From Thermoplasmata archaeon (lineage in GTDB: Archaea > Thermoplasmatota > Thermoplasmata > UBA10834): 64,000 bases of DNA. Below the pieces are notes generated by a model. It made no database searches. It was not told the DNA's origin and saw only the letters and a list, made by a program, of their open reading frames with translations. Both the position numbers and the translations under genes were made by a program. Location of the stretch: contig JBFYNF010000045.1 in the NCBI GenBank assembly GCA_041304525.1, positions 7,479 to 71,478 on the forward strand. The letters run 5' to 3'. Of the stretch, positions 18,218 to 37,200 are shown in pieces. The first letter of the stretch is position 1; each line of letters begins with the position of its first letter.

Positions 18218-19450
18218 CTACCTCTGTGTGCGCTTGGCGGCCGACACGGCTGACAGGTAGTCCTCGATGCGCTTGATACGCATAGACACCTTGGCCACGT
18301 CGTTCGTCAGGGTACCGATCCTGAGGACCAGTTCGTCAGGAACCCTTGGCTCGGGGATTATCGGTATGTCGGGCATTCTGATGTTCTCGGCAATCGACCG
18401 CACCGTGGCGACCTCCTCGACCAGTTCTTCGAACCTGGCGGGGAGGTCGTCCTCGCCCTCCTCTTCCTCCGGGACCCGCAGAAGCTCGATTGTGCTCTTG
18501 AGAGCGGTCACTTCGTCGGCCAAATTCGCGACTGCCGACTGGGTGCCCGAATCCTTCGCAGGTGCATGAGAGGATGCGATAGCCTTGTCTATCTTCCTGT
18601 CCGTTGTGGCCAGTATGACACCGAGCCCCTTGGCGATCTTCTTGTCCAGCTCGATCTTGAAATCGTGGAGTTCTCCCCTCAGATGTTCCTGGACGTCCTC
18701 CAACTTCTCGCCTTGGAGCTTCACGTCCCTGAGCATCGTGGTGAGGTCCGACATGAGGGAGGATGCACCTGACAACGCCTCGAGGTCGTCAGGGTCGAGC
18801 TTACCGCCCGCTGAAGCGATGTTGCAGTGCCTGAGACCGTCGACCATCGCAAGCATGTCCACGGTCGGGCCGCTCCTCTGGACCGCCTGCCTGATCGGCT
18901 CCAATCGGGCCATGACAGTCTCGGCCATCTTCACGGGGTTCTTCGTCCATTCGCCCATGTTGCTGAGCTCGCTCATGGCCTTCTCAAGCTGACGAGTGGC
19001 GTCAACCATGTCCGAACTCTCGATAGCGCGTATGTCCCTAATCGCGTCGCGCCGTCCCTTGGCCACGGCGTCATCCACAGAGAAACCCTCGTGAGGATAC
19101 ACGGTCGCCAGGTAGGACACGCCGGACATCACCTTGCCCATCACGTATTCCCAGTCTTGGCTAGTGACGGCTATCGTCGGCCTCTCGGACTTCTCGAACA
19201 GTAGGCAGAAACTGTCGTTGGGCATGTAGCATGCCTCGATGGAGTAGGGATGGTTCTTGTAGAACACTGGCGGGTGTTCAGGGCTCTCGCTCTGGACTGC
19301 GCCCATATAGGCGCCCATGTATGCCCTCGCGTAATTCGCGAGGTCCACGTCGGTGGGCCCTTTGTCCCTGCGCCCGCTCGGTTCTGCGCTCATATCCGCA
19401 CCAGGCATTGTGTCAACCTGGCTCTCACATGCCGTACTTGCGAAAGGCAA
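18218..19450 (-). CDS. hypothetical coiled-coil protein (410 aa)
   Basis: Long ORF on the same strand as, and 99 nt downstream of, the wHTH gene 19550..19930. The C-terminal half is heptad-like and charged. No motif recognised. Confidence 0.5.
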   Translation of the reverse strand: MPFASTACESQVDTMPGADMSAEPSGRRDKGPTDVDLANYARAYMGAYMGAVQSESPEHPPVFYKNHPYSIEACYMPNDSFCLLFEKSERPTIAVTSQDWEYVMGKVMSGVSYLATVYPHEGFSVDDAVAKGRRDAIRDIRAIESSDMVDATRQLEKAMSELSNMGEWTKNPVKMAETVMARLEPIRQAVQRSGPTVDMLAMVDGLRHCNIASAGGKLDPDDLEALSGASSLMSDLTTMLRDVKLQGEKLEDVQEHLRGELHDFKIELDKKIAKGLGVILATTDRKIDKAIASSHAPAKDSGTQSAVANLADEVTALKSTIELLRVPEEEEGEDDLPARFEELVEEVATVRSIAENIRMPDIPIIPEPRVPDELVLRIGTLTNDVAKVSMRIKRIEDYLSAVSAAKRTQR

Positions 19451-19549
19451 ACTACAGCATGCCGCATCGGGTAGAACGGTGAAATATGTTTCCGGTCGAA
19501 TCTCGGATATGATTATCAGTCCGGACGAGCTCAGCGAGATGCTCTCTGT

Positions 19550-19930
19550 CTACACAGCAGCGGAGGCGATCCAGTCCTCGGACCACTTCACCTGGCCGGT
19601 CCTGAGTTCGAACTTCAGTCGCACCTTGCCGTCATCGAAGAATATCTGGGCGCGTCTGACCTGAGACAGATAGGTCCTTGTCCACTTGCCCTTCTGCGTG
19701 AGGACCTTACCCTCGCATTCCAGGAGTCCTTCTGAAAGGAGAGTGTTGACCCTCCTGTAACCCAGCGTGACTGGTATGTCCAGACGTTGGCACATGTCCT
19801 GGACGGTGCGCGGCCTGTCCCTCGAGTAGATGAGGATCTTGGCCGAGTACTCATCGACCAAGAGCTTGGACAGCTCGTACGCGTTCATCCCAGGTGGCCT
19901 CGACCTTGACAATTCTATGTCATCCGTCAT
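19550..19930 (-). CDS. winged-HTH (ArsR-like) regulator, paralog 1
   Basis: KILIYSRDRPRTVQDMCQRLDIPVTLGYRRVNTLLSEGLLE looks like a wHTH. Alignable along its length with the divergent neighbour 20179..20547. Confidence 0.6.
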   Translation of the reverse strand: MTDDIELSRSRPPGMNAYELSKLLVDEYSAKILIYSRDRPRTVQDMCQRLDIPVTLGYRRVNTLLSEGLLECEGKVLTQKGKWTRTYLSQVRRAQIFFDDGKVRLKFELRTGQVKWSEDWIASAAV

Positions 19931-20178
19931 AAACCATCTGGCTCAATTCCAAGCCGAGACAATCAGAGACGATACACCGCCCTATGAGACAGTTCTGACA
20001 GCAAGGAGTGAGGGACGTATCTGGCCGGCCTGAAAGGACGCCTGTGAGAAGTTCGTGTGATTCTCACCCGTTACAAACAAATCGTGAATTATATATATTG
20101 ACAAAATAGTACCCCTGGACAAGGGATGGGAATAAGCTCTAACTCCCCCCTAACGAGGGGATCCGAACGGCTACCGAA

Positions 20179-20547
20179 TTGGGCATCACAGCGGACGCTA
20201 AGAAGCTGAGTATCGCGCAGATACTCACAGACGAATACAACATGAACATCCTTGCAGCCACGAGCCACAAGGCCCGTAGCGCCAGGGAGCTTGCGTTCAT
20301 GTTCGATATACCACTCGCGAGCTGCTACAGGAAACTGAGGGAGCTCGGGACATCTGGTTTGATCGAGCAGGAAGGCAGCGAGCTCACATCGGATGGGAAG
20401 AGGTACAAGGTGTACCGCTCGATGATAGGGAGCGTGACGATGGTCTACGAGAAGGGCACTCTCCGCATGAAGGTGGACATGAACTTCAGGTCCGCCCCGC
20501 TCGAGATCATCCAGAATATGGCGTTGCCGAAGTCGAGAGAGTTCTGA
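20179..20547 (+). CDS. winged-HTH (ArsR-like) regulator, paralog 2
   Basis: NILAATSHKARSARELAFMFDIPLASCYRKLRELGTSGLIE. Same architecture as paralog 1. A TTG start is needed to keep the full HTH. Confidence 0.55.
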   Translation: MGITADAKKLSIAQILTDEYNMNILAATSHKARSARELAFMFDIPLASCYRKLRELGTSGLIEQEGSELTSDGKRYKVYRSMIGSVTMVYEKGTLRMKVDMNFRSAPLEIIQNMALPKSREF

Positions 20548-20604
20548 TTCTGCGAGAAGATTGTGCCTGCGGAGCCTCCGCAGGAAACCTTTGCATAGTC
20601 ATGC

Positions 20605-20638
20605 CAGCATGTGCGGCCGGCGGCACATGCTGATTTTC
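20605..20638 (+). terminator. hairpin plus T-run downstream of wHTH paralog 2
   Basis: Perfect 10-bp inverted repeat CAGCATGTGC/GCACATGCTG (20605-14 / 20623-32), followed by ATTTTCT. Confidence 0.4.
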
Positions 20639-20737
20639 TAAAAAGAGAATCACACCGGAACCGTCTTCTATTACACATGATAATCATTCATGGCTCTCAG
20701 GGGCGGAAGTAACGCTCCGCGCAGGGCAACGCTTGGA

Positions 20738-20759
20738 CTATCCACAGGGCATGTAGACC
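20738..20759 (+). repeat. archaellin-leader conserved element, copy 1
   Basis: CTATCCACAGGGCATGTAGACC, flanked by complementary CTTGGA/TCCAAG. Lies 161 nt upstream of the flaB1 ATG. Confidence 0.8.
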
Positions 20760-20919
20760 TCCAAGGGAGTGAGCTAGAACAACAACGAAGGCGGATAGGC
20801 CAGGCAGCGGATTCTGGACCCATGTCATAACGGCAGTGCTTCCTCACTACCGTCCTCCAATCCCATGGTCCCAGGACACGATGCCTAGCCTTCCCGCACA
20901 CACCACGGAGGTATGAGAA

Positions 20920-21534
20920 ATGAAGAAGATATCCAAACCCAGAAGGGTGCGGATGGGCGAAGAGGCCGAGATGGGGGTCGGGACATTGCTGATCTTCATC
21001 GCGATGATACTTGTCGCGGCGGTTGCCGCGGGGGTGCTCGTCCAGACCGCGTATGTACTACAGCAGCAGGCGGAGTCGACAGGAGATCAAGCACTGATGG
21101 AAGTGGCAACGGGATTCAGAATACTCGCGGCGTACGGGGTGACGAACCTATCGGTCCCTGAGGTGACCGACCTATACATCAAGATAACCTTGGCGGCAGG
21201 TAGCCCGGTCATCAACCTCGAGCACGTGATCATCGAGATCACGAACGGCGACAACGACGTTTCGCTGGCGTTCAATGTCACTGGCTCTGATGTGGATTAC
21301 TTCGGCGCGACACAGATCAGGGACACCTATCCCACGAACGACTGGACCACTGGCGAGCCGGGGATGACACAAGGCGACATCGCCCTCATCCACGTGAACC
21401 TTAGTGCGAACAGCCTCAGTCTGGCGTCGCAGCAGCAGGCGGACCTGTTGATCATCCCGAAGCACGGCATACCGACATACCTGTCGGTGGTTGCGCCGTC
21501 AGTGCTCTCGAACACCTACGAGAACCTCACCTAG
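20920..21534 (+). CDS. flaB: archaellin (FlaB/ArlB) 1
   Basis: Class III signal peptide and conserved hydrophobic N-terminus EMG|[26 protein letters not shown], followed by a beta-rich domain. Confidence 0.9.
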   Translation: MKKISKPRRVRMGEEAEMGVGTLLIFIAMILVAAVAAGVLVQTAYVLQQQAESTGDQALMEVATGFRILAAYGVTNLSVPEVTDLYIKITLAAGSPVINLEHVIIEITNGDNDVSLAFNVTGSDVDYFGATQIRDTYPTNDWTTGEPGMTQGDIALIHVNLSANSLSLASQQQADLLIIPKHGIPTYLSVVAPSVLSNTYENLT

Positions 21535-21557
21535 AAGGCTTTGAAGGATGTGATTCC

Positions 21558-22019
21558 ATGAACGAGGACGGGGAAGCCGCGTTGGAAGTGATTTCGGTCG
21601 ATTCGAGGACCAACATCATCACGATGCGGTGGCTCTCGTTCCTCATGGACAAGATTGACCCTGAGGCATTGCCTGAGCTGTTCGTCTTCTACAAGAGGAT
21701 AGGGTGGCTGGGAACGCAGGCAGCCGCGTACATGTCTGCGTTGGCCGAAGGGGCGAAGCCCGAAGCGCCTTCTGAAGAGCAGGCGCTGATGGAAGAGGAC
21801 GTCGAAGACCACAACCTCCTGATAAGGAGAGGGACCGATTCCGGAAAGGAACCGATGGTGGAAGAGGTCGACTGGCGGCTGACGCCCGAGGACCACATCA
21901 AGTGCTGGATGTTCATGATGGAGATAGCCGGATTGGACGTCGATAGGAACACTTGGGTAGAGGTCGACGAGCGCATCAGCCGGTTCGAGAGAAGGCTCGC
22001 GGACTACTACAAGGTATGA
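21558..22019 (+). CDS. FlaD/FlaE-family archaellum accessory protein (short form)
   Basis: TMRWLSFLMDKI...FYKRIGWLG...DWRLTPEDHIKCWMFMMEIAGLDVD aligns with the C-terminal FlaD/E domain of 25285..26442. Confidence 0.65.
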   Translation: MNEDGEAALEVISVDSRTNIITMRWLSFLMDKIDPEALPELFVFYKRIGWLGTQAAAYMSALAEGAKPEAPSEEQALMEEDVEDHNLLIRRGTDSGKEPMVEEVDWRLTPEDHIKCWMFMMEIAGLDVDRNTWVEVDERISRFERRLADYYKV

Positions 22020-22151
22020 TACTCTGTAGGTGCTCCGCCGCTGCGCTGAGAGAGGCAAACATACACACAGGGCATCCGAACGTACCTGGACCAGGCTTCG
22101 GCCAAACCCTTTACAATTCTGATTTTCTCCCGTGAAAATCACGGCTGGTCG

Positions 22152-22161
22152 CCTTATATAT
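22152..22161 (+). promoter_or_regulatory. TATA-like box upstream of giant archaellin gene
   Basis: CCTTATATAT lies about 45 nt upstream of element copy 2 and about 205 nt upstream of the ATG. Confidence 0.45.
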
Positions 22162-22202
22162 CAACGGCCCTGATTGAATATCAACAGCCTCCAACGCATC
22201 TC

Positions 22203-22230
22203 GAGGCACTATCCACAGGGCATGTAGACC
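22203..22230 (+). repeat. archaellin-leader conserved element, copy 2 (28-nt form)
   Basis: GAGGCACTATCCACAGGGCATGTAGACC. The 22-nt core is identical to copy 1, and all 28 nt are identical to the reverse complement of copy 3. Confidence 0.8.
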
Positions 22231-22365
22231 GTAGGCTCTCGTCCTCAGGACGAGCTAGTAGGCAGGTCCGTAGGACCTGCCCATTCTGATAGTGTCCCAC
22301 GTTGGTGACCGCTGCAATCCGAACATAGCCACGTTCCATGCCCTCCAAACACGGAGAGGACTGGG

Positions 22366-24087
22366 ATGGGGCTTCGCAAGATCCGACAACTGAGGGCACA
22401 GGACGAAGAAGCCGATATCGGTATCGGTACTCTGATCATCTTCATCGCGATCGTACTAGTGGCGGCCATTGCGGCATCGCTCATACTGTACGCGGCCGCG
22501 CTGCTCCAGGAGCAGGCTGAGAGGACCGCGGACGACGCAGTATCGGAAGTGGCTGGTGGCCTGTCGGTCATCAACATAGCGGGTGACCGAAACCCGGACG
22601 GAGAAGCGTCGACGATAGTCTCGGGATACATGCCGGTGACTGACAACCATGCGCCCATCGGTGGAATACTATGGAATGTCACAGCCTCGACCGACGGGAC
22701 GTCAGTACTAGGGGTTGCCCTGAACTGGACCCCTGCGAACGATTTCGGGTCAGGGTTGTACGAGGAGATCGTGTACCGCACCTCCGTGTACGATCCCACC
22801 AACCCGGCCGTATTCAACGAACAGATCGCAAGGAACCGTCTCTTGACGCTCGACCAGCTGAACCCATCCATGGAGCTCGTCAGGCTCGGCGCGGGTTCCA
22901 GGTCTACCGTCCAATACACTGACTACACCGTTAGGGACGACAACTCGACCTCCTACGCCTACGCCATAGTGGGCGTGGACAGGGCGGGGAACGTCGTACT
23001 CTACACAGCCATCGACAGCTCCACCTCCACGGACGGCTCGTCGCATGACGAGGACCTCGTGCCGCCCTCCGGCGGCTCGATGACGAGCACTGCCAGGCCC
23101 GACGAATATTCAGTGGCGCTGTTCTGGGTGCCTGCGAGTGACGGCGCGAGCGGAATAGATGCTCAGAGGCTGTACAGGACCGAGGGGGCTGTGAGCTCTC
23201 TGCCTATAACCATCCAGGATGGAAGGACCGTGGTGACTGTCCCAGTCACGGTGACACTCTTGGAGGAGTTCAATTCCACCACATCGAGTCACGTCGACGC
23301 TCCCTCTGAGATCGGGGTGTACACGTACTTCATCGTGGTCCGAGACAACGCTGGGAACGAGGAGTTCATCGGCACCCTCAGTTACGACGCGCAGACGGTC
23401 GATTCGAACCCGCCCGAGAACGCAGGGTCGGTATCCGTCAGACAGGCCCCACAGTCAATGAACATATCCTGGACGGAGGCGACCGATGCGCAGACGGCTG
23501 TCTCTTCGTACCTGATCTTCAGGAGCACGAGTATCGGCACCCTTGACACGATTGAAGAGCTCATGACCATGGCGCCGTTGGCGGAGCTCGACTCGAGCGC
23601 CGGGAACTACTCCGACTACTCCGGTACGTCGGGCACGCTCTACTACTACGCAGTCGTGGCAGTCGATTCCGCCGGCAATTACGCTCAGTCCTCGATGCCA
23701 TCCAACACCATACAGATGATCGAGATCAAAGTCAAGACCGTCCCGGGAAGCAGGCCTGTGCAGTTCACGACCATGATGATCGAGATAACCGATGGCATGA
23801 CCGATGTCACCCTGAACTTCAACTCCGGTCAGTTGGGGGCCTCCGGCGCGACCGCCACCATGTTCTCCGCAGAGATCCTGAGGGATCCCGACAGCACCTT
23901 CGCCACCACATTCTCACTCTACGATGGTGCCCTAGTGAAGGTCTTCATCGACGCGGGCGAGATTGGATTGAGCCTGCATGCGGACTCGTCGTTCTCCCTC
24001 AAGTTCATACCGGCAATCGGGCAGCCGACCCTCGAGGAGTGCAGGATACCATACCTCGGTACGTATAGGTACGTAATACTCGTGTGA
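22366..24087 (+). CDS. flaB: giant archaellin (573 aa) with three FN3-like domains inserted
   Basis: Archaellin N-terminus ADIG|IGTLIIFIAIVLVAAIAASL and archaellin-like C-terminal domain (IQMIEIKVKTVPGSRP...ITDGMTDVTLNFN). About 360 aa between them hold three repeats with an FN3-like pattern (L.W.PA.D..SG....YR ... Y.Y.VV.VD.AGN). Confidence 0.8.
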   Translation: MGLRKIRQLRAQDEEADIGIGTLIIFIAIVLVAAIAASLILYAAALLQEQAERTADDAVSEVAGGLSVINIAGDRNPDGEASTIVSGYMPVTDNHAPIGGILWNVTASTDGTSVLGVALNWTPANDFGSGLYEEIVYRTSVYDPTNPAVFNEQIARNRLLTLDQLNPSMELVRLGAGSRSTVQYTDYTVRDDNSTSYAYAIVGVDRAGNVVLYTAIDSSTSTDGSSHDEDLVPPSGGSMTSTARPDEYSVALFWVPASDGASGIDAQRLYRTEGAVSSLPITIQDGRTVVTVPVTVTLLEEFNSTTSSHVDAPSEIGVYTYFIVVRDNAGNEEFIGTLSYDAQTVDSNPPENAGSVSVRQAPQSMNISWTEATDAQTAVSSYLIFRSTSIGTLDTIEELMTMAPLAELDSSAGNYSDYSGTSGTLYYYAVVAVDSAGNYAQSSMPSNTIQMIEIKVKTVPGSRPVQFTTMMIEITDGMTDVTLNFNSGQLGASGATATMFSAEILRDPDSTFATTFSLYDGALVKVFIDAGEIGLSLHADSSFSLKFIPAIGQPTLEECRIPYLGTYRYVILV

Positions 24088-24129
24088 TTCTTGGAAGCCA
24101 GTCGTCCCGGAATCAACGCGGAGCGAATC

Positions 24130-24158
24130 AGGGGTGAGAATCACCCCTAGTAATTTTT
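24130..24158 (+). terminator. hairpin plus T5 terminator after giant archaellin gene
   Basis: AGGGGTGA-GAA-TCACCCCT (8-bp stem), followed by AGTAATTTTT. Confidence 0.55.
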
Positions 24159-24166
24159 CTGAATAT

Positions 24167-24178
24167 TTGTATAATAAT
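24167..24178 (+). promoter_or_regulatory. AT-rich TATA-like region upstream of flaB3 leader
   Basis: TTTGTATAATAA lies within the only AT-rich stretch (24151-24187) of this intergenic region. Confidence 0.4.
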
Positions 24179-24217
24179 GTTTATGACTTGTCCTCTCGAT
24201 AGTAAGGGCTCGAGAGA

Positions 24218-24245
24218 GGTCTACATGCCCTGTGGATAGTGCCTC
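24218..24245 (-). repeat. archaellin-leader conserved element, copy 3 (inverted)
   Basis: The plus strand reads GGTCTACATGCCCTGTGGATAGTGCCTC, the exact reverse complement of copy 2. Flanked by GAGAGG/CCTCTC. Confidence 0.8.
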
Positions 24246-24566
24246 TCAAGCCAACCTTGGGAGGCACATCTCTCTCACTCCCCGCTGTAGGGCACGGCGG
24301 TTGCCTCGGAGGTGAGGCGTGAGGACCTGGTAAACACGATTGACCTGGTTGCCGCCAGAATCGATTGATCGCCCCAGAGCAACGACGTGCCAAGTACGGG
24401 GTACAAAACCGTGTGTTTTGGACCTACATCGAGCAGAGGAAGCTCTCGATGTCCCGCCTGTGGCGGGGGAGCCAGGATCGGCTCTGACGATCCCCGCGCC
24501 GGCAGGTTCGCCGGTCGTCCCTCAGGTACGGAACCTGGGAAAGATGCGAGATTGGAGGAAGAAAGA

Positions 24567-25181
24567 ATGCAGAAACTAGCATGGAAGAAGAGGAAGATGG
24601 AAGAGGAAGGTGAGATGGGTGTTGGTACCCTTCTGATCTTCATCGCCATGATACTCGTAGCCGCTGTGGCCGCGGGTGTACTGGTTCAGACCGCATACAA
24701 GTTGCAGCAACAGGCTGAGAGCACCGGTAACGAGGCACTGCAGGACGTCGCCACGGGCTTCAAGGTCCTGACTGTCTGGGGAACCACGGGCACTGGTGGG
24801 AACATCACTGACGTGTACCTGAAGATCGCCCTTACGGCGGGCAGCCCCGGCATCAACCTTGCAGACGCCAAGATCGAGGTCATACAGACAATCGGCGGAA
24901 CCACTGCCTCTGAAGTGACCCTTGATTATGTGGACGGCGCGCCATCGGCATCGGCGTTCAACGCAACTGTGCTGAGGGACATGGCTCCGTCGACGACTGC
25001 CGCGATGATGACCTCTGGCGACATATTCCAGGTCCACCTTGACCTCGAGACGATGGTCATGGGTCTGGATGTCCAGGAGCAGCTCTCTGTGTTGCTGATG
25101 CCGAAGCACGGTGTCCCAACACTGTGTGAGATAACTGCGCCCTCGACGCTCGAGGCAAGCAGCGTGGTTGTCCTGAAGTAG
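24567..25181 (+). CDS. flaB: archaellin (FlaB/ArlB) 3
   Basis: ATG at 24567 preceded by [26 protein letters not shown]|[26 protein letters not shown] is identical in protein to flaB1 over the N-terminal helix. Both are 204 aa. Confidence 0.9.
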
Positions 25182-25203
25182 AGACACAAGCCTCTGCGAA
25201 CCC

Positions 25204-25255
25204 GTCAGGGCATCACCAAACCCCTCCCTTTCTGGGAGGGGGATGGTGCCCTGAC
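25204..25255 (+). other. long imperfect hairpin between flaB3 and flaC/D/E
   Basis: GTCAGGG..CACC..CCCCTCCC-TTTCTG-GGGAGGGG..GGTG-CCCTGAC, giving 7+4+8 bp with small internal loops. Confidence 0.4.
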
Positions 25256-25284
25256 TAGAGAGCACGGGGAAATGGTGTAAGGAA

Positions 25285-26442
25285 ATGGCTGGCCTGTTCC
25301 GCAAGAAACCAGAGAAAGACGGTTCCTCCGCAAGAAGGAAGCTGAAAGGCTTCGAGGAGGGATTCGAAGAGGAGGCGGAAGAGGGGGCCTACGAGGAGAC
25401 TGAGACTAGCCAGAGAGCCGACAAACTCGTCAGCGCGGAAGATGAAGACTACTTGGGAGAGGACGAGGCCAGCGGCGCAGGTCTCGCAGGCGTCAAGGAG
25501 CTAAGCGAGCTCATGGGACGCCTGGAGGAGATCGAGGACAAGATGGGCCGGATCGACTCCGCTCTCACAACGGATCGGAACGAGAATGCCAAGGTCCGGG
25601 ACCGGCTCAATCAGATGGAACAGGACATCAGGAAGCTCCTTTCCGTCTACGAGGTCGTGTCCACCAAGTTCAACCCCTTCCTAGATGTCTCCGAGAAGAC
25701 CCCCCCACCTGTCCAGCCCCAACCGGCTGTGATGCCTGAGCCCGCTCCGTTCGCTCCAATCGAGCTGGACGGGGACATACCGGAGTTCCGGCCATATCAG
25801 GAAGGGGAAGTGGAGCCGCCCACCTTCAATGGCAAAGGGCCCAAGGCCAGCCGCGACGCCGCCCCGTGGGAGCCAGGGACGTCAACCGCTACCGTTGAGA
25901 CAGTGTTCTCCGGACCCAGGAGAGAGCCCCCACCGACACTCGACAAGACCTCGAAGGACGAGAAGTATGAAAGGCAGGTGAGAGCGTCCGCGAGGAGCAA
26001 ACACAACAAGAAGCCGCTCCTTGCGTACATCCCACACGACTACCTGACGCTGGTCCTCGTGATGCGCTGGATAGAGTTCCTGTTCGAGCGCGTGACCAGG
26101 GAAAGGATGTCGCTCGTGCTAGACTACTATGTCGATGTAGGATGGATCAGCGAGGACGTGAAATCAGAGATCATGTCCTACGCGCGCGGAGAAATGCAGG
26201 ATGTGACCAAGTACATGGGCCAAGAGGAGGTAAGGGAGGACGTGTTCCGCGACCTCCCGCCGCCGACAGCGGCCCCGTACAAGAAGGTCGAGGACTGGCG
26301 TCTGTCCGCAGACGACCACCTGAAGTCCCTGCTGTTCGTGCAGAAGATAGCCGGACTAGAGGTTGACAAGGACCGCCTTAACTCCCTCGAACAGAACATC
26401 TCCAAATTCAAGGAGAGTCTGGAGGGCTTTCATGGGGTTTAG
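25285..26442 (+). CDS. FlaC/FlaD/FlaE-type fusion protein (ArlCDE-like)
   Basis: N-terminal coiled coil ending LSVYEVVSTKFNPFLD (FlaC-like), a Pro-rich linker, then the FlaD/E domain (LVMRWIEFLF...YYVDVGWISEDV...DWRLSADDHLKSLLFVQKIAGLEVD). Confidence 0.8.
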   Translation: MAGLFRKKPEKDGSSARRKLKGFEEGFEEEAEEGAYEETETSQRADKLVSAEDEDYLGEDEASGAGLAGVKELSELMGRLEEIEDKMGRIDSALTTDRNENAKVRDRLNQMEQDIRKLLSVYEVVSTKFNPFLDVSEKTPPPVQPQPAVMPEPAPFAPIELDGDIPEFRPYQEGEVEPPTFNGKGPKASRDAAPWEPGTSTATVETVFSGPRREPPPTLDKTSKDEKYERQVRASARSKHNKKPLLAYIPHDYLTLVLVMRWIEFLFERVTRERMSLVLDYYVDVGWISEDVKSEIMSYARGEMQDVTKYMGQEEVREDVFRDLPPPTAAPYKKVEDWRLSADDHLKSLLFVQKIAGLEVDKDRLNSLEQNISKFKESLEGFHGV

Positions 26443-30485: not shown

Positions 30486-30608
30486 CTTCAGGTTCTGGAT
30501 TGGCCTTTGAGGCCACCGAGCGCAGGCTCCACAGGGCTACCTCCGCCCAAGGGTGCGGCATTGGCTCTGCTCAGGAGCCGCTTGAGGCGCCTCAGCGGAT
30601 GGGTGAGG

Positions 30609-32258
30609 ATGCCTGCAGACGAAGCTGGCCTGAAGAAGGCCATGAGGAAGAACCCGCACCTCCTTGAATACGTCCAGGAGTTCGTCAGCAGACACAGGTC
30701 GCCTCCAGAGTTCCACCCCGTGGTCGAACGCAAGATGGGGGACGAGCAGCAGGTCAACGTGATCTACCCGATAGGCGACCCGCTCTTTGTCCATGTGTTC
30801 TCGACAGATAGCATACCCATCAGCTACAAGTCCGTGCAGCCGCCGATGACGCCGGACCTGCAGCCCAAGTACAGAAAGGTCATCCAACAGGTCTACAACA
30901 AGGCCGTCTACATGGACCCGCACGAATCTGTGGAGGAGTTCGAGAAGAATCTCCTGCAGCTGATAGACGCCTCGACAAAGATCTCCGAGAGCAGCACGGA
31001 TGGCGACGGCAAACGCATCTTCGGCGACCTTTTCACGGAGCCAAAGATATTCGTCACCCAGCACGAGCAAGACCTGATCAAATACCATGCGAAGCTGGCG
31101 ATTGTGCTAGCAGGACCCCTTGAGCCACTCCTCAGAGACCCGTACATCGAAGATATCCACTGCATCGGACACGACAACGTCTCCATCGTCCACAAGATAT
31201 TCCAGGCGATGCCGACCGATGTGAAGTTCGAGTCGATGGAGGAACTCGACAACTATGTTCGGGCCTTGAGCGAGAGGATAGGCAGGCCGGCGTCGATGGC
31301 TAGGCCGATAGTGGACGGTACGCTTCCTGACGGGTCACGTATCAACCTCATCTACGCTGACGATGTGAGCGTCAAAGGCCCCAGCTTCTCCATCAGGAAG
31401 TTCGCCGAGGAACCTATAAGCATAACCCACCTGATCGAATGGAACACCATCAGCGCCCAGGAAGCCGCCTACATATGGCTCTGCCTGGAAGAAGGCATGA
31501 GCATATTCTTCTGCGGGGAGACGGCGTCGGGCAAGACGACGACCATGGGCGCGGCCCTCCCATTCATCAAGTACGACAGCAAGGTCTACACGGCCGAGGA
31601 CACCATCGAGATGCAGGTTCCACACAAGGTGTGGCAGAGGTTGGCAACGCGGGACTTCGGCCCTGAGGAGAGCAGGGTCGACACGTTCTCACTGCTCAAG
31701 GCCGCTCTAAGATCGAGACCGAACTTCATCATAGTCGGAGAGATTAGGGGCAAGGAAGGGAGCGTTGCGTTCCAGGCCATGCAAACGGGCCACCCCGTCC
31801 TGTCCACGTTCCACGCGGCATCGACGAGGAAGCTCATACAGAGATTCACCAGCGACCCCATCAATGTGCCCATCACGTTCATAGACAACCTGAATGTCGC
31901 GTTCTTCCAGGCAGGCGTGTACAGGGAAGGTAAATTCCTGAGACGGACGATGTTCATTGATGAGATCGTCGGGTACAACGAAGCGCTAGGCGGGATCATG
32001 ACCCGGACCATCTTCCTGTGGAACGCCGCGGACGACTCTCACATGTTCAAGGGGATGAACAACTCCTACATCCTCGAGGAGAAGATTGCGGTCAAGAGGG
32101 GCTACAGTGACAAGAGGAAGATATACGGTGACCTGGCCCTCAGGACCAAGATACTCGAAGAGATGGTCTCCAGGAAGATATTCAAGTACGAGAAGGTGGC
32201 GGAGATAACCAAGGAGTTCCAGAAGAAGGGGGTGAGCGGCCTACCGTTCCCCGTGTAG
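30609..32258 (+). CDS. flaI: FlaI (ArlI) archaellum ATPase, copy 2
   Basis: Same motifs as copy 1 (GETASGKTT, NFIIVGEIRGKEG) and alignable end to end. ATG at 30609 is preceded by GGTGAGG. Confidence 0.9.
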   Translation: MPADEAGLKKAMRKNPHLLEYVQEFVSRHRSPPEFHPVVERKMGDEQQVNVIYPIGDPLFVHVFSTDSIPISYKSVQPPMTPDLQPKYRKVIQQVYNKAVYMDPHESVEEFEKNLLQLIDASTKISESSTDGDGKRIFGDLFTEPKIFVTQHEQDLIKYHAKLAIVLAGPLEPLLRDPYIEDIHCIGHDNVSIVHKIFQAMPTDVKFESMEELDNYVRALSERIGRPASMARPIVDGTLPDGSRINLIYADDVSVKGPSFSIRKFAEEPISITHLIEWNTISAQEAAYIWLCLEEGMSIFFCGETASGKTTTMGAALPFIKYDSKVYTAEDTIEMQVPHKVWQRLATRDFGPEESRVDTFSLLKAALRSRPNFIIVGEIRGKEGSVAFQAMQTGHPVLSTFHAASTRKLIQRFTSDPINVPITFIDNLNVAFFQAGVYREGKFLRRTMFIDEIVGYNEALGGIMTRTIFLWNAADDSHMFKGMNNSYILEEKIAVKRGYSDKRKIYGDLALRTKILEEMVSRKIFKYEKVAEITKEFQKKGVSGLPFPV

Positions 32259-32265
32259 GTCCTCC

Positions 32266-33927
32266 ATGGCTGCGAGCAAGATGAAGCGTCTCTACCAGTC
32301 CCTCGACATGCCCGTTGAGAAGTACTTCACGAGATACGCTCTCCCGCTCGTGATAGCGGGCATCGGCGCGACTGCCCTGCTGGTCTTCCTATTCCCCGAA
32401 CTGGCGGCCGATGGGCTGTTCAAGTATGTGTTCCTGGCAATCCCTGTCCTCTTCTCGGTCGTGGCAGTAATATACCCGATGCTACAGGGTGAACGGAAGA
32501 AGGTCCAGATAGAAAGGAACATGCACCTGTTCCTCGTCAGGATGAGCGTCCTCTCGACATCGAAGCTGCCAAGGAAGAAGATGCTCGAGATCCTTTCGAA
32601 GGTCAAGGAATATGAAGCGCTCAGCCTTGAAATCGAGAAGATCTACAAGCTCATGGAATACTGGAACATGGGTCTCTCGGACGCCGCGAGGACCGTCTCC
32701 CGCAAGACTCCCTCGCCGATGCTAGCAGATTTCCTCGACAGGCTCGCGCACTCATCCGATGCGGGCGAGGACCTCGAGGAGTTCCTCACCAAGGAGCGGG
32801 AGGTGTCCATGAGCGTCTACATCAACAAGTACGAGACGGCGCTCAAGGACCTCGACCTGCTGAACGAGATATTCGTCGCCGTGCTGATATCCCTGATGTT
32901 CATCCTCGTGTTCGTCGCGCTCCTGCCCGTGTTCGTGGACATATCCATCACCCTCATTCTTCCGGGCGTCGCGCTGCTGTTCGTCATCGTCGAGGGGATG
33001 GTGCTGTATCTGGTCAAATCGCTACTTCCATCGGACCCCATATGGCACAACATCAAGGGGCAGACCGAGATCGACAAGGTGATGAAGTCCGTCCTTCCGG
33101 CGACATACGCGGCATGCATCGGGTTCGCCGCCTTCGGGTTCCTGACGGGCTTACCCCTGATGCTCATAGTCGCGCTTGTCGTCACACCGCTCCTGTATCC
33201 AGGGTTCATGATAAGGAGGGAGGAGAAGCGGGTCAGGGCCAGGGACGAGAACTACGATTCGTTCATGAGGGCCGTGGGCAGCTACGCGGCATCTGCTGGC
33301 TCCGCGGTCACGGATGGCGTCGGCAGGCTGAGCAAGCACGACTTCGGGGAGCTCTCGGAAGGCATAGTGATCCTGTACAAGCGCCTGCTCACCCGGATAG
33401 ACCAGATACGCGCCTGGAACCTGTTCGCAGCCGAGAGCGGGAGCAACCTGATCTCCAAGTTCACGGAGATGTATGTCGTCGGTCTGTCCGTGGGCGGGAA
33501 GGTGGACAAGGTCATCGACATCATCAGCGACAACTTCGTGAAGCTGATGGGCGTCAGGCGCAAGAGGTACCAGTCATCCGACAACATGCTGGGGACATTG
33601 TATGGGATGTCCGTCGGCATAACGTTCACCTTGTTCTCCGCGCTGAGCCTGATGCAACTCCTGAACATCATGAACGAGCAGTTCGCGCTCTCCCAGACGA
33701 CGATCAATCTGCCCATCGCGCTGAAGCCATTCGACCTGGGCCTGGCTGAGGCGGTCTTCCTGCTCATCATGCTCGTGCACTCGCTCATATCCGCGAACCT
33801 CGTCTCCTTCGCCGGCGGCAGCCACAAGCATAGTTTCTACATCAACTTCGCAATCATAACATGGATCAGCACCGTGACGGCCATCGTCACACAGTTGATG
33901 CTCGACAAGGTCCTGAACCTCTCATGA
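32266..33927 (+). CDS. flaJ: FlaJ (ArlJ) archaellum membrane platform protein
   Basis: 553-aa polytopic membrane protein with a duplicated T2SS-F-like organisation, directly downstream of flaI. Confidence 0.85.
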   Translation: MAASKMKRLYQSLDMPVEKYFTRYALPLVIAGIGATALLVFLFPELAADGLFKYVFLAIPVLFSVVAVIYPMLQGERKKVQIERNMHLFLVRMSVLSTSKLPRKKMLEILSKVKEYEALSLEIEKIYKLMEYWNMGLSDAARTVSRKTPSPMLADFLDRLAHSSDAGEDLEEFLTKEREVSMSVYINKYETALKDLDLLNEIFVAVLISLMFILVFVALLPVFVDISITLILPGVALLFVIVEGMVLYLVKSLLPSDPIWHNIKGQTEIDKVMKSVLPATYAACIGFAAFGFLTGLPLMLIVALVVTPLLYPGFMIRREEKRVRARDENYDSFMRAVGSYAASAGSAVTDGVGRLSKHDFGELSEGIVILYKRLLTRIDQIRAWNLFAAESGSNLISKFTEMYVVGLSVGGKVDKVIDIISDNFVKLMGVRRKRYQSSDNMLGTLYGMSVGITFTLFSALSLMQLLNIMNEQFALSQTTINLPIALKPFDLGLAEAVFLLIMLVHSLISANLVSFAGGSHKHSFYINFAIITWISTVTAIVTQLMLDKVLNLS

Positions 33928-34188
33928 GGGAGAAAGGTGAGCGTCCGTCTGCGGTCCATGGCTGGCCTGAAGAGGTTTGGCCACCGAATCTTGCCTTTCG
34001 CAGTCGTCCTCTGAGAGAACGCGCATGGGCCAGCCTCTGGACAGGTTCTGACGAACGCTTGATTCGACTATCCTTAGCGCTTTTCATAAGCGTTTGGCAA
34101 GGAATCTCCGCACTGAGAATCGGTCGAGATTCTCTTCCCCACCCTGTGTCCGGACAACTGGTGTTGTTTCGCTGCACTTGACGCACAT

Positions 34189-34226
34189 GATAGTCAGGCG
34201 CGAGAATTGAGCGCCAAACCTTATGA
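34189..34226 (+). repeat. 38-nt promoter/operator-like element, copy B (upstream of surface protein gene)
   Basis: GATAGTCAGGCGCGAGAATTGAGCGCCAAACCTTATGA. The TATA-like end lies 23 nt before the ATG at 34250, which is consistent with a leaderless mRNA. Confidence 0.7.
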
Positions 34227-34249
34227 GTGGATAGACCTGATTTTGACAT

Positions 34250-37200
34250 ATGGCCACCGTGAGTAGGACGGCGCTCACGAGCACGATGCTCGTTGTTCTG
34301 CTCCTCCCGATGACGCTCATGGTCCTGCTCCAAGGACCGCCGGCGCCGTCCGCTCACGCATTTCCCATAGACGATTTTGGGAGCAGCATCAGACTCACTT
34401 TCGACCAAGCCATATCGACCAACGTATCCTCCAGCGTGGATGACGACGGCAATATACACGTCGTGTGGGAAGACTACAGGTCCGGGGCCGGGGACATCTA
34501 CTACATGAAGCTGGACGACGAAGGCAACAAACTCACCAACGACGCGAAGATATCCAACGACACCACCGCATCCCGGAACCCATCGGTGGCAGCTGACTCG
34601 GACGGACACATATACATCGTGTGGGAGGATGTGGACAACGGCTCGTCTGAGCTATTGTTCGCGAAGCTGTGGTACTACGAGGGCAACATCACATTCCAGG
34701 AGAATGGGCTCCAGGTATCGGACAGCGACCCCGCGAACTCGACTGAGCCGGACATCGCCGTGTGCCAGGACGGCAACCTATCCTTGGTTTGGACCGACGC
34801 TCGGCACGACGCCGGCGACGGCAACCTGGAGATCTACTATAAGCGCCTGAGGATGTCAGGGACCTCTCTCACACCCGATACGCGCGTGACTGGAGACGTT
34901 GGACGGTCTGAACACCCGAGGCTCGATACAGACTCTGATGGTATGGTCCACATCGTCTGGTACGATTTCAGGGACTCCAGTAACGGCCTGGTGATCAACC
35001 ACGGCGTGTTCTACAGGAAGGTCATAATGGACGGCACGCCCCTGACACCCGAGACGAGGATCACCTTCGCTTCACCTCAGTCGAGGCCTGACATAGCAAT
35101 AGACACTGATGGAAACGTACACGTGGTCTTCGACGACGACCGGTATGCGAGTTTCGACATATTCTACACGCTCCTCGACCCTGACGGGAACACACTCGTG
35201 GATGACAGGAACATCTCACCCAAAGACGACAACGAGTCCAGATGCCCCAGGATAGCCCTGAGCGACTCCAACGCAGTCGATGTCGTGTGGCAGGACCAGA
35301 CGTCCGGTCTATGGGCCATCCACTACTCCGCGATGAACTACAACGGTGAAATCGAGGTCTACGACCAAGGACTGACTTCAGAAACGGTCGGGAACGCCAC
35401 CATCCCTGTGGCGATGTGCGCGAATGACAACAACACCCTCGTGATGTATGTGGGCGACTATCCGAACATGGAGGTGTTCTTCTCAAGGACTCACAGGCCG
35501 GATCCGGCGGTGCTCGCGGGCGGGATTTCCATGTCATCCACCCAACCACTGATCGGGACCACTGTCTGGGTCAATGCGACCGTGTGGAACCTCGAAGGGG
35601 ATGCCCTAACGGATCTGGCTGTCCGCCTGATGGTCGATTCGGTGGCGGTCGAAGACGCCACTGTAGCCTACCTAGTAGCAGGGCACTCAACCGTCGTCAG
35701 TTTCTCACACACAGCGTCCGAAGGCGAGACCATCGTGACTGTGGCCGTCGACCCTGATCAGACCGTAAGGGAGACATTTGAGACCAACAACCAACAGTCA
35801 GCCCCTATGCTCGTCCGGACGCCCGGGGTCGTTCTGACGTCCGACGTCAGCAGCCAATCTGCTGAGCCCGACGAGACGGCCATATTCAACATCACAATCA
35901 CCAACGAAGGCAACACGGCGTTCTCATTCTGTCTGTCGAACTCCGAACCTGAGAGCGGCTGGATCATTGACCTGGGTGGCTCGCCTGAGGGCATCTACAC
36001 GGTTCCCGCAGGCTCGTCGGCCGTGGCTACTGTTGAGGTCACGGTTCCCGAGGATGAGACGCCTGGAGCGCGTGCGTTCTCCGTGCTCGCCACATGCGTC
36101 GAAAGAGACTCCGTCAACGACAGCGTCACCCTCATGGTGGATGTCGTCAGGTTCGGCGAACTGACTGTTGTATCGTCCGACGGAGGAGATGTCGAGCCGA
36201 CCATCCCTGAGCTATACACGTTCACTGTCTCAAACTCGGCCAACGCCAATGAGACCTTCGCGGTCTCGGCCTCCGACCTCCTCGGATGGGACCTCGTCGC
36301 TTCCCATGACGAGCTGGAGCTCGCACCCGGTGAGGAGGCTGAGGTGTCCGTGCTCGTGACGCCTGCTAGGTACGATCCCCCGGGCACACTGAATACGCTC
36401 ACGTTGACCCTGTCATCCATGAACTTGACCTGGAACACAGTGGAAGGGAACTTACTCATGATCGTGGGGCATCACTGGGAGGTCGACGCCAAGCTGACGC
36501 AACAGGCGTTCCTCAACATGTCTGTGCCAGATGAGAGAGAGGTCAGGTACATCCTCGATGTGACGAACCTAGGCAACTCAGATGATGTGTTCAGGCTGAG
36601 TCTATCGGGGATTGATGCGTTCTGGGCCACCCTGAACACGACCTATGTGTTCCTCGGAGCCGGGGACGAGCAGCAAGTCTACATATCCCTCACACCAGGC
36701 GTGGACGTGCTCGCAGGCGCATACCCTTTCAATGTGACCGTCGTGTCGGAATCCGACGACAATGCGACGGAGACCCTGGAGATGGGAGTGTCCGTGTTGC
36801 CGTTCTACGACATCTCAGTATCGGCTGAGTTCGCACAGGTGAGCCTACGACGAGGAGAGACCGCGTTCGTCAACCTGACGGTCCGGAACACCGGCAATTC
36901 GGCGGATGTCGTCGACCTGTACGCGTACGTGGGCGCCCTAAACACGACAACGGCTACCTTTGTGGGTGAGGTGGTGTCACTGGAAACGGGAGACCCCATC
37001 CTCATCGCTCTGGAACCCGGAGGGTCTGCCACAATCATGCTGACGATACCGGTTCCCGGAGATGTCGAGATCGGCTTGCAGGACTTGTGCATGGACTTCA
37101 GTTCCATGACCGACCCGAGCGTTATGGCATCTCAGACCGTCAGTGTGCTAGTAGAGGATGACCCGTCTTGGTTCACTCTGTGGGTCATACTGATCATAGT

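Follow-up and report, generated by a model that had tools for sequence, protein, structure and literature searches.

In Listeria, the hly 5′ UTR pairs with the prsA2 mRNA, and the RNA of the SreA riboswitch acts on the prfA leader. We know of no such case in Archaea. DsrA and rpoS provide an example of anti-antisense activation, while Hin/hix of Salmonella constitutes an invertible flagellin switch. Pairing within one mRNA, between 5′ UTR and 3′ UTR, is found in icaR of Staphylococcus aureus (PMC3868564). Among DNA elements tied to archaellin expression, the EarA boxes of euryarchaeal archaellum operons (Methanococcus maripaludis, Thermococcales) are activator sites of 6-8 bp that lie immediately or ∼9 nt upstream of the BRE and occur before the first archaellin gene only (PMC10665913, PMC5512572).

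In an uncultured Thermoplasmata archaeon, a 22-28 nt block is common to the long 5′ leaders of three genes for archaellins (archaeal flagellins); the flaB1 and flaB2 leaders carry it in the sense orientation and the flaB3 leader in the inverted one. As in the Listeria cases, a leader segment is complementary to another mRNA and could couple functionally linked genes. However, the predicted partners here are paralogous structural genes of one cluster, and they are complementary over a far longer stretch (up to 28 nt), which is conserved across ∼20 species.

Copies of the block and their position in the leaders

An exact search of the window, by which we mean the entire 64-kb stretch of DNA analysed, returned exactly three matches to the 22-mer CTATCCACAGGGCATGTAGACC, at 20738-20759 and 22209-22230 on the plus strand and at 24218-24239 on the minus strand. 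No additional match was found in the window at up to three mismatches, and none occurred in 100 dinucleotide-preserving shuffles of it; chance would account for none. The inverted repeat between copies 2 and 3 is perfect over 28 nt (22203-22230 and 24218-24245, with 1987 nt between the arms), and that between copies 1 and 3 over 25 nt (20737-20761 and 24216-24240). The search thus bears out the three copies, their orientations and the 28-nt match described in the original prediction, and the distances to the start codons (135-330 bp) are also as it gave them. The three genes (20920-21534, 22366-24087 and 24567-25181) are archaellins by Pfam PF01917. A fourth, degenerate sense copy, GAGAGGCA-N8-CACAGGGCA (22050-22074, plus strand), is situated just 3′ of a flaD/E-like gene and upstream of the flaB2 promoter, and has counterparts in relatives; its CACAGGGCA portion (22066-22074) has four matches in the window against 0.58 expected.

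Each archaellin gene has its own promoter. At flaB2 (22120-22161, plus strand) a palindrome, TGATTTTC-N6-GAAAATCA (22120-41), precedes the TATA box TTATATAT (22154-61). Its counterparts are a palindrome at 20631-52 with TGATAATCA at 20678-86 for flaB1, GAGAATCA at 24136-43 with a TATA box at 24180-87 for flaB3, and TGATTCTCA at 20058-66 for two neighbouring winged-helix (wHTH) genes. The motif TGATTYTC/GARAATCA is present at all three archaellin promoters and at the wHTH promoter, which together hold six of its seven matches in the window. This motif, the partial copy CACAGGGCA and a complementarity between GGGAGTGAG after copy 1 and CTCACTCCC after copy 3 contradict the earlier impression that nothing else is shared upstream of the three genes.

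Archaeal TATA boxes are centred at −26/−27 (PMC5512572). The distance from the start of the TATA box to the start of the conserved leader, 32 nt for both flaB2 (22154 to 22186) and flaB3 (24180 to 24212), fits this value and would place the copies inside the transcripts. Counted from the first nucleotide of the TATA box, the block begins 49 nt downstream in flaB2 and 38 nt downstream in flaB3, within the conserved leader. Relative to the predicted transcription starts, copy 1 (20738-20759) is ∼40 nt downstream, copy 2 (22203-22230, the 28-nt sequence GAGGCACTATCCACAGGGCATGTAGACC) spans approximately +18 to +45, and copy 3 (24218-24245, minus strand) is ∼7 nt downstream. Every copy is flanked by hairpins, some of which covary while others hold their shape as their sequence turns over, and G·U pairs within them place these structures on plus-strand RNA. 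All three copies therefore appear to lie inside transcribed, structured leaders; the TATA spacing and flanking hairpins agree with the proposal that the block follows TATA and stands at, or close to, the 5′ end of long leaders rich in hairpins. A search of positions 19000-26000 against Rfam with cmscan (E up to 1) gave two chance-level matches, both unrelated to the block.

The positions and orientations of the block are kept in ∼20 species-level Thermoplasmata genomes. In a genome scan, a 19-mer of the block was found at 22 Thermoplasmata loci from ∼17 species, always as a +/− pair ∼2 kb apart or as a +,+,− triple, whereas 13 single matches in bacteria are at chance level. Three complete related genomes carry the block at the archaellin locus only (three copies in CP070736.1, two each in CP070732.1 and CP070748.1). 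Nearly all species show no difference between copy 2 and the complement of copy 3 over ∼27 nt, whereas their surroundings do not align. The block is thus selectively conserved, as proposed; it recurs upstream of archaellin genes in related species and is not dispersed through the genome. Copy 1 is conserved across species only in CTATCCACAGGGCA, and its 3′ half drifts, with indels, and is degenerate in many species.

Where the block does change, the copies tend to change together. T17C is found in all three copies in lineage CAWBDD. In lineage Ga0137716 all three show T2C, and copies 2 and 3 have an A-to-G change as well. Six more differences between copies 2 and 3 are all G·U-compatible for flaB2 RNA against flaB3 RNA, a bias that is partly explained by structure inside each leader. 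The concerted changes amount to two or three events, and gene conversion or within-leader structure could give the same pattern. In a distant lineage with another gene order (L083), two archaellin leaders carry a copy each, one antisense and the other sense, and the two are complementary over 14 bp plus 6 bp. A relative that lost its archaellins (L008) still has a flaB3-type leader, in which the block matches that of its closest archaellated relative (L068) at 15 of 21 positions while the next 100 nt are 89% identical, suggesting that the block decays once the archaellins are gone.

Predicted structures of the leaders

Across species, the whole flaB3 leader (∼355 nt; 24212-24566, plus strand) retains an RNA structure in which 20 of 62 pairs have changed on both sides in a compensatory manner and 35 of 1054 alignment cells hold non-canonical combinations. 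Its conserved fold, compensatory changes and location on the coding strand are those of a structured leader RNA that regulates in cis. RNAalifold predicts, right at the 5′ end, a three-way junction (24212-24276, plus strand) closed by GAGAGAG (24212-18) and CUCUCUC (24270-76). One arm, hairpin A, is the antisense block GGUCUACAUGCCCUGUGGAUAGUGCCUC folded on itself (24219-25 with 24231-37, loop UGCCC at 24226-30), and the other, hairpin B (24239-50 with 24256-67), covaries. The junction is 97.1% paired with seven pairs changed on both sides, a result reached by none of 500 shuffles, and a covariance model recovers it at 24208-24330 with 123 bits. Two alternative partners are available to CUCACUCC (24274-81) of this leader: GGAGGUGAG (24308-16) and the ribosome-binding site GGAGG (24554-58). 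The sense block cannot form hairpin A, as two G·U pairs would become A·C mismatches.

In the flaB2 leader, copy 2 lies between the hairpins GCCUC/GAGGC (22187-91 and 22203-07) and CUCGUCC/GGACGAG (22238-44 and 22248-54). Its core AGGGCAUG (22217-24) is complementary to a CAUGCCCU box (22337-22344, plus strand) that precedes the ribosome-binding site GGAGAGG (22353-59) by 9 nt, and pairing of GUU (22333-35) with GAC (22227-29) lengthens this helix. The helix is 98.8% paired across species, with changes of the G·U type only, and the CAUGCCCU box is retained, though shifted, in the distant lineages L072 and L083. Because the block and the closing stem of the flaB3 junction are almost invariant, covariation cannot prove either hairpin A or the long-range flaB2 helix, for both of which the changes seen are one-sided and G·U only; in L083, hairpin A is kept through compensating changes. 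Hairpins of the flaB2 and flaB1 leaders persist while their sequence turns over. Directly after copy 1, GGGAGUGAG (20765-20773, plus strand; GGGAGUGAGAGAG in most species) has its complement in the flaB3 leader, in CUCUCUCACUCCC (24270-82), providing a second stretch of flaB1/flaB3 complementarity.

These structures differ from the original picture of the 22-mer as a hairpin loop presented by flanking stems. For copy 1, the stem CTTGGA/TCCAAG is present in the window but is lineage-specific, with TCCTAG, TCCTCG or TCTCTC in relatives. For copy 3, the stem GAGAGG/CCTCTC competes with structures favoured by the comparative data: CCUCUC belongs to a covarying hairpin, and the CCUCCC present in roughly half the species would disrupt the flank stem. 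The loop arrangement itself shows no covariation, and in flaB3 the block is instead predicted to fold on itself as an arm of the three-way junction.

The predicted contacts of the flaB2 block with the CAUGCCCU box and of CUCACUCC with the flaB3 ribosome-binding site resemble icaR and DsrA/rpoS in that a distant segment pairs with the ribosome-binding-site region. Unlike in those systems, a simple thermodynamic test revealed no unmasking: when the flaB2 block was masked in silico, the start region of flaB2 was not predicted to become more accessible, which hence supports no concrete regulatory outcome. Nor can an RNase III-type outcome be assumed in this archaeon.

Protein binding, recombination and action within one mRNA

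The strongest competitor to RNA pairing, although we consider it unlikely, is an orientation-independent DNA operator downstream of each archaellin promoter that represses or tunes transcription, bound by a protein that need not be either of the neighbouring wHTH proteins. A double-stranded-DNA binder would read the sequence equally in both orientations in which it occurs near the three co-regulated promoters, cross-species invariance fits a conserved recognising factor, and synteny with two paralogous wHTH genes plus an Lrp/AsnC gene next door is kept in all relatives. Moreover, archaeal repressors can bind past the transcription start (PMC5512572). However, the block lies at variable positions relative to the predicted starts (∼+7, +24 and +40), the latter two outside the pre-initiation footprint; its asymmetry, with no dyad symmetry, is unusual for dimeric wHTH proteins; its within-genome identity of 28/28 is far tighter than operators usually show; and the spacing from core to TAGACC varies by 1-3 nt among flaB1 copies. 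The regulators' own promoter lacks the block and carries TGATTCTCA instead, and the block decays in L008 despite intact wHTH genes and promoter motifs. The palindrome TGATTTTC-N6-GAAAATCA/TGAGAATCA, which occupies an activator position and recurs at the promoter of the wHTH genes, appears from its placement to be a better transcription-factor site than the block. The suggested link to EarA likewise finds no support in the position of the block. Although the block is a short conserved sequence tied to archaellin expression, its CTACATG resembles TACATA and small wHTH genes adjoin the archaellum operon, it is 22-28 nt long, downstream of TATA inside the transcript, before each archaellin gene and once inverted, whereas an EarA site would be expected ahead of the first archaellin gene, ∼0-11 bp upstream of its BRE/TATA. 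That place is filled by the palindrome. Compared with the EarA consensus (TACATA, or A(C/G)(C/G)TACA(T/C), often in tandem copies), each block has one TACATG (identical at 5 of 6 positions), which copies 1 and 2 carry on the opposite strand and which is TGCATG in all copies of CAWBDD; no tandem TACATA-like copies are present in the block, and the two wHTH proteins give weak HTH_20/TrmB/Sta1 matches only.

We judge it rather improbable that every copy serves only the mRNA in which it lies, by pairing with the CAUGCCCU box in flaB2 and by forming hairpin A in flaB3, the shared sequence then reflecting descent by duplication and inversion plus separate constraints. Own-leader partners are indeed predicted and conserved, and the block is mostly paired in folded monomers. 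This account leaves unexplained why sense and antisense copies stay identical over 27 nt while neighbouring hairpins turn over completely, and why substitutions arise in all copies together; the inability of the sense version to form hairpin A also counts against it. Less probable still, and very unlikely in our estimation, is a recombination substrate, whereby copies 2 and 3 invert the flaB2 cassette as a phase-variation switch and the direct copies 1 and 2 permit deletion, or gene conversion homogenises the copies. A perfect 28-nt inverted repeat does bracket flaB2 and the flaB3 promoter, the size of the repeats (∼26-28 bp) at a motility-filament protein locus recalls Hin/hix, the copies change in concert, and L068 has lost flaB2 while L008 has lost flaB1 through most of flaB3. 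Those deletions end elsewhere than at the copies, though, and none of the assemblies examined (∼25 loci from many independent samples) shows flaB2 reversed. Pfam scans of the large open reading frames in the window detected no recombinase, integrase or transposase, and the block has none of the dyad symmetry of hix, dif or lox-type sites. Inversion would strip both flaB2 and flaB3 of their promoters and, unlike in Salmonella, would give no productive alternative. An inversion switch is thus disfavoured, as is a replication origin. In an archaeal origin, inverted recognition boxes lie on both sides of an AT-rich unwinding element beside orc1/cdc6, where GC skew turns; the window has no Orc1/Cdc6 gene and its cumulative GC skew rises steadily. 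The octamer TCCACAGG is, we presume, the sole resemblance of the block to an archaeal origin recognition box.

A possible pairing module for archaellin mRNAs

We tentatively favour a role for the block as an RNA-RNA pairing module that couples the archaellin mRNAs, which is the best reading of the locus even if it falls a little short of probable. The complementarity expected from the inverted third copy is real, and mRNA-mRNA pairing still offers the best available explanation for it. Complementarity between flaB2 and flaB3 extends over 27-28 nt in nearly all species, and that between flaB1 and flaB3 over 14-33 nt. Dimerisation of the flaB3 leader is predicted to yield a net −8 to −35 kcal/mol with the flaB2 leader and −10 to −29 kcal/mol with the flaB1 leader, compared to −2 to −16 kcal/mol when the antisense block is shuffled. 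The 28-bp perfect match exceeds what pairing needs. On the other hand, the block is asymmetric and the palindromic TGAGAATCA already stands in the usual operator positions, both of which we count in favour of RNA.

Since copy 3 is inverted, the flaB3 leader, which would carry the exact complement of the flaB1 and flaB2 blocks at its very 5′ end, should be able to form a duplex of 27-28 bp with the flaB2 leader and one of 14-25 bp with the flaB1 leader. The antisense block would be held as an arm of the junction with its UGCCC loop exposed, and could meet its partner either on another mRNA (in trans) or within one read-through transcript (in cis). Such a duplex would compete with the partners of the block within each leader, namely the CAUGCCCU box by the ribosome-binding site in flaB2 and the block's own hairpin in flaB3, and thereby may couple the translation or stability of the archaellin paralogues. 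Duplex formation in vivo, its effect and the transcription starts are what we infer. If the pairing model is correct, coupling of the paralogues would set the composition of the filament.

A repeated block at the archaellin locus

The 22-mer CTATCCACAGGGCATGTAGACC occurs as three exact matches, at 20738-59 (+), 22209-30 (+) and 24218-39 (−), and no further copies were found in the 64-kb window even when three mismatches were allowed; shuffled sequences gave none. Copies 2 and 3 form a perfect inverted repeat of 28 nt, and copies 1 and 3 form one of 25 nt. The three copies precede the archaellin genes (Pfam PF01917) flaB1 (20920-21534), flaB2 (22366-24087) and flaB3 (24567-25181), with a flaD/E-like gene (21558-22019) placed between the first two. 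Upstream of the archaellins are an Lrp/AsnC gene and two divergent paralogous wHTH genes (19550-19930, −, and 20179-20547, +; 30% identity); the remaining archaellum operon follows downstream.

FlaB2 is a giant archaellin of 573 aa with Ig/FN3-like inserts, in which a normal N-terminal archaellin domain is joined to ∼400 aa with weak Ig-like/FN3 matches. Its length is conserved in all relatives (∼554 aa past the N-terminal motif), and its additional domains may build an outer layer around the filament. The gene at 18218-19450 (−), whose 410-aa product matches nothing in Pfam or NCBIfam, is kept in synteny with the wHTH pair by all relatives, with products of 275 to 605 aa, and may be part of the archaellum regulatory unit. 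Directly past flaI, the region 30507-37351 encodes another secretion ATPase (T2SSE) along with a platform protein of the T2SSF type, likely flaJ, and a surface protein of 1033 aa with many CARDB and Ig-like domains. Farther away, an MttB-family (trimethylamine methyltransferase-like) gene (51268-52776, −) has an uninterrupted ORF and therefore presumably represents a member that does not use pyrrolysine.

A 255-kb JGI metagenome contig matches the window, and the same species is represented in an NCBI MAG and several sequencing runs; the three copies are identically arranged in all of them. Relatives were reached through wHTH-B homologues, a scan of genome collections with CTATCCACAGGGCATGNAG, and a scan of metagenomes with an alignment of FlaD/E-like proteins. 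Among the genomes, 22 Thermoplasmata loci from ∼17 species were found, each carrying either a +/− pair ∼2 kb apart or a +,+,− triple, together with 13 isolated matches in unrelated bacteria, as many as chance would give. The motif is confined to the archaellin locus in three complete genomes (CP070736.1, 1.42 Mb; CP070732.1, 1.97 Mb; CP070748.1, 1.70 Mb), and when loci are oriented by their archaellin genes all 19 species examined have copies 1 (+), 2 (+) and 3 (−) at the same positions. This distribution marks the block as conserved and specific to the locus, and the three-copy arrangement described in the original prediction is real and non-random; the checks named there, for genome-wide dispersal and for absence from the archaellin loci of relatives, found neither. 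A search of distant archaellum loci for different but analogous repeats found none.

Promoter motifs and the placement of the block in transcripts

Alignment of the upstream regions of the three archaellin genes across relatives revealed a second conserved element, a palindromic motif TGATTYTC/GARAATCA (TGAGAATCA) with sites at 20058-20066, 20631-20652, 20678-20686, 22120-22141 and 24136-24143 in the promoters of wHTH-B, flaB1, flaB2 and flaB3. Six of the seven TGATTYTC matches in the window are at these wHTH and archaellin promoters. In flaB1 and flaB2 the palindrome takes the form TGATTTTC-N6-GA(A/G)AATCA, 11-12 nt ahead of the TATA box, and in flaB3 GTGAGAATCA is found farther upstream of this box. 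The wHTH-A/B intergenic region carries an invariant TGATTCTCA ∼28 nt ahead of a TATATATA box in seven lineages, including archaellin-less ones. Because the palindrome is present both at the usual position for archaeal activators and at the regulators' own promoter, it is the better candidate for a wHTH/Lrp site, and it is likely the operator of the neighboring wHTH or Lrp regulators in an autoregulated archaellum regulon. Published EarA boxes are situated immediately upstream of the BRE (PMC10665913; PMC5512572). The 22-mer is not, and on this wrong position the EarA/TACATA link that had been suggested for it was rejected as unsupported.

The flaB2 TATA box (TTATATAT, from 22154) is followed by a variable stretch, after which strong conservation resumes at 22186 (AGCCUCC...). 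Likewise, conservation in flaB3 picks up at 24211-12 ((C)GAGAGAGG...) behind a TATA box that begins at 24180. The distance from TATA start to conserved-leader start is 32 nt in both cases, which fits a TATA box centered at −26/−27 (PMC5512572). With leaders starting after the TATA box and structured RNA beyond, the block would be placed at about +7 in flaB3, +24 in flaB2 and about +40 in flaB1, in the sense orientation in flaB1 and flaB2 and antisense in flaB3.

Sequence past these putative starts behaves as structured RNA, suggesting that all block copies reside inside transcripts. The ∼355-nt flaB3 leader has 62 consensus pairs, 20 of them with two-sided compensation, and only 35 of 1054 cells are non-canonical. 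Two tandem hairpins directly 3′ of the flaB2 block are present in every species, the second with a wholly different sequence between lineages, and in flaB1 a variable-sequence hairpin separates a conserved GCUCUCA from the block. The structures were assigned to the + strand because G·U pairs are frequent.

Structures of the archaellin leaders

According to RNAalifold, the flaB3 leader begins with a three-way junction that has a closing stem (GAGAGAG/CUCUCUC), a hairpin A composed of the antisense block (GUCUACA/UGUGGAU, loop UGCCC) and a hairpin B (GUGCCUCUCAAG/CUUGGGAGGCAC). Among its alignment cells 97.1% are paired, seven pairs are changed on both sides, and none of 500 shuffles reaches the observed value, while slid controls reach only 40-62%. 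This support derives from hairpin B, as the closing stem and hairpin A are nearly invariant. The two substitutions seen in hairpin A both preserve pairing, and in the distant lineage L083 the hairpin is kept by an inserted A that is matched by an A-to-U change. The original prediction had instead presented the block as the loop of stems formed by its flanks. This reading is rejected: the copy 3 stem (GAGAGG/CCUCUC) is contradicted by the placement of CCUCUC in covarying hairpin B, where about half of the species have CCUCCC, and the copy 1 stem, although present here, is lineage-specific.

Other features were noted in the flaB3 leader. The segment CUCACUCC (24274-24281) has two alternative partners, the nearby invariant GGAGGUGAG (24308-24316) and the GGAGG ribosome-binding site 280 nt downstream (24554-24558), and this anti-SD/anti-anti-SD layout hints at a translational switch. 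Midway along the leader, a hairpin (CAAAAC/GUUUUG) followed by a T4-5 run (24404-24420) is kept in most but not all species, and it might terminate a fraction of transcripts to yield a leader RNA of ∼205 nt. A mini-ORF (AUG CCC UGU GGA UAG) was discarded on the loss of its stop codon in the related lineage Ga0137716, as was an AUG-UAG mini-ORF in the sense copy, which is lost in another relative, CAWBDD, and in flaB1 variants. No known RNA family in Rfam matches, and this 355-nt structured leader is new, from an uncultured Thermoplasmata clade.

In the structure that RNAalifold predicts for flaB2, the block core AGGGCAUG is joined to a conserved CAUGCCCU box (22337-44) located 9 nt upstream of the ribosome-binding site, and a 5′-proximal CAUCU to a GGAUG that contains the start codon. 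The long-range block helix is 98.8% paired with one-sided G·U changes only, and the distant lineages L072 and L083 have a shifted version (CAGGGCA with UGCCCUG); the helix is consistent with these data but not proven. When the block was forced to be unpaired, the predicted unpaired probability of the start region changed from 0.44 to 0.39, 0.32 to 0.32, 0.39 to 0.45 and 0.38 to 0.38. With no general rise in accessibility, unmasking of the ribosome-binding site as a specific outcome is unsupported. Pairing of both CAUGCCCU and GAUAGUG with the block was rejected as well, since the helices would cross and GAUAGUG has A·C mismatches in four species.

The flaB1 5′ domain has a weak consensus structure (−7 kcal/mol), and its CTATCC/GGATAG helix (20793-98) is compensated in two species and broken in five. 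It is not a mirror-image homologue of the flaB3 domain, as copies 1 and 2 score no more than 15-29 bits with the covariance model, on the minus strand, which reflects essentially the 22-mer alone.

Apparent coupling between copies and its possible meaning

Across GAGGCACTATCCACAGGGCATGTAGAC, copy 2 matches the complement of copy 3 exactly in almost every species, and the few core substitutions are present in all copies of a genome, as with CATGCAG in CAWBDD and CCATCC in Ga0137716 (each in all three copies; the latter also has GGCGC in copies 2 and 3). The other six differences that separate copy 2 from copy 3, in the related genomes or clades SRR166 (two), CP748, DATKWQ, CP736 and CAWBDD/CAWFTI, would all yield G·U and never A·C in a flaB2–flaB3 RNA duplex, although several are also accounted for by hairpins within a leader. 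We calculated dimer minimum free energies as the net gain after the unfolding cost of both partners. Nucleotides 1-120 of flaB3 gain −8 to −35 kcal/mol with the flaB2 leader (−27.8 in the window) and −10 to −29 kcal/mol with the flaB1 5′ domain (−25.5), compared to −2 to −16 kcal/mol once the antisense block has been shuffled. In the predicted monomers most of the block is paired, but the UGCCC loop of hairpin A and the GGGCA in the flaB1 copy are predicted to stay open, so that contact could be initiated at a loop.

Natural variants offer further comparisons. Close relatives in three groups (L008-L011, L012-L015 and L020-L021) have lost archaellin genes and kept both wHTH genes, and represent decaying archaellum loci. 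In L008-L011 (8354-8998), flaB1, flaD/E, flaB2 and most of flaB3 are deleted, and the promoter motifs and a flaB3-type leader joined to flaC/D/E are retained; in L008 the fusion to flaC/D/E includes the first flaB3 codons. Compared to L068, its closest archaellated relative, the 100 nt past the block are 89% identical whereas the block matches at 15 of 21 positions. The slowest-evolving part of the leader in archaellated genomes is one of the fastest once archaellins and partner copies are gone, which points the same way, to copies tied to each other. In L068 (1846-2180), flaB2 is deleted except for its last ∼16 codons and copy 2 is gone, while flaB1, flaD/E and flaB3 are kept; copies 1 and 3 share 33 nt of complementarity, including two G·U pairs and one mismatch. 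Gene order differs in L083, where a flaB3-type domain with the antisense copy (400-500) is ahead of an archaellin of 361 aa, itself upstream of flaD/E, and the giant archaellin has a sense copy (2119-2150) before it. The sense/antisense division is therefore older than the present gene order.

Judged from these sequence patterns, the prospects are close to even that the block is an RNA-level sense/antisense module common to archaellin leaders, whatever its precise consequence. A protein that binds the block as double-stranded DNA would be indifferent to its orientation, and archaeal repressors are able to act past the start site, which makes a DNA operator plausible and the main alternative. 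We nevertheless consider it rather unlikely, because the distance from block to start varies, the block has no symmetry, identity between sites reaches 28 of 28 positions, internal spacing is variable in flaB1 copies, the regulators' own promoter has no copy, and the block decays in L008 although the regulators are intact. Purely cis-acting structures formed by each leader separately are quite improbable, as they explain neither the identity of sense and antisense copies nor their concerted changes.

An inversion switch or recombination site is disfavored: the flaB2 orientation is the same in ∼25 independent assemblies, the window has no recombinase, the repeat lacks dyad symmetry, and the inverted state would leave both genes promoterless. 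The block was also rejected as a replication-origin box, given that the window has no Orc1 gene and its GC skew shows no turn.

Pursuing the leader pairing raised in the original prediction, we tentatively propose a conserved sense/antisense network in which paralogous archaellin mRNAs pair through their leaders and so set the archaellin ratio in the filament. Either the flaB3 leader would use its 5′ end as an internal antisense RNA against the leaders of flaB1 and flaB2, or these would act in that way on flaB3, and pairing would affect the share of each archaellin, including the giant one. To our knowledge, the established regulators of archaellum expression (EarA, the Arn network and CsmR) act at the level of transcription. 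Full-text literature searches found no description of an element of this kind at archaellin genes. It fits best under antisense or mRNA–mRNA regulation, and nothing comparable is known to have been described for this lineage and gene system.

The uncultured clade thus provides a candidate regulon motif, TGAGAATCA, and natural deletion variants that can be used as controls. Deeply conserved complementarity between separately transcribed leaders supplies a concrete, testable hypothesis for post-transcriptional coupling of paralogues. If true, this would be the first described archaeal case of regulatory pairing between mRNA leaders, and archaellum composition would have its first known control at the post-transcriptional level.
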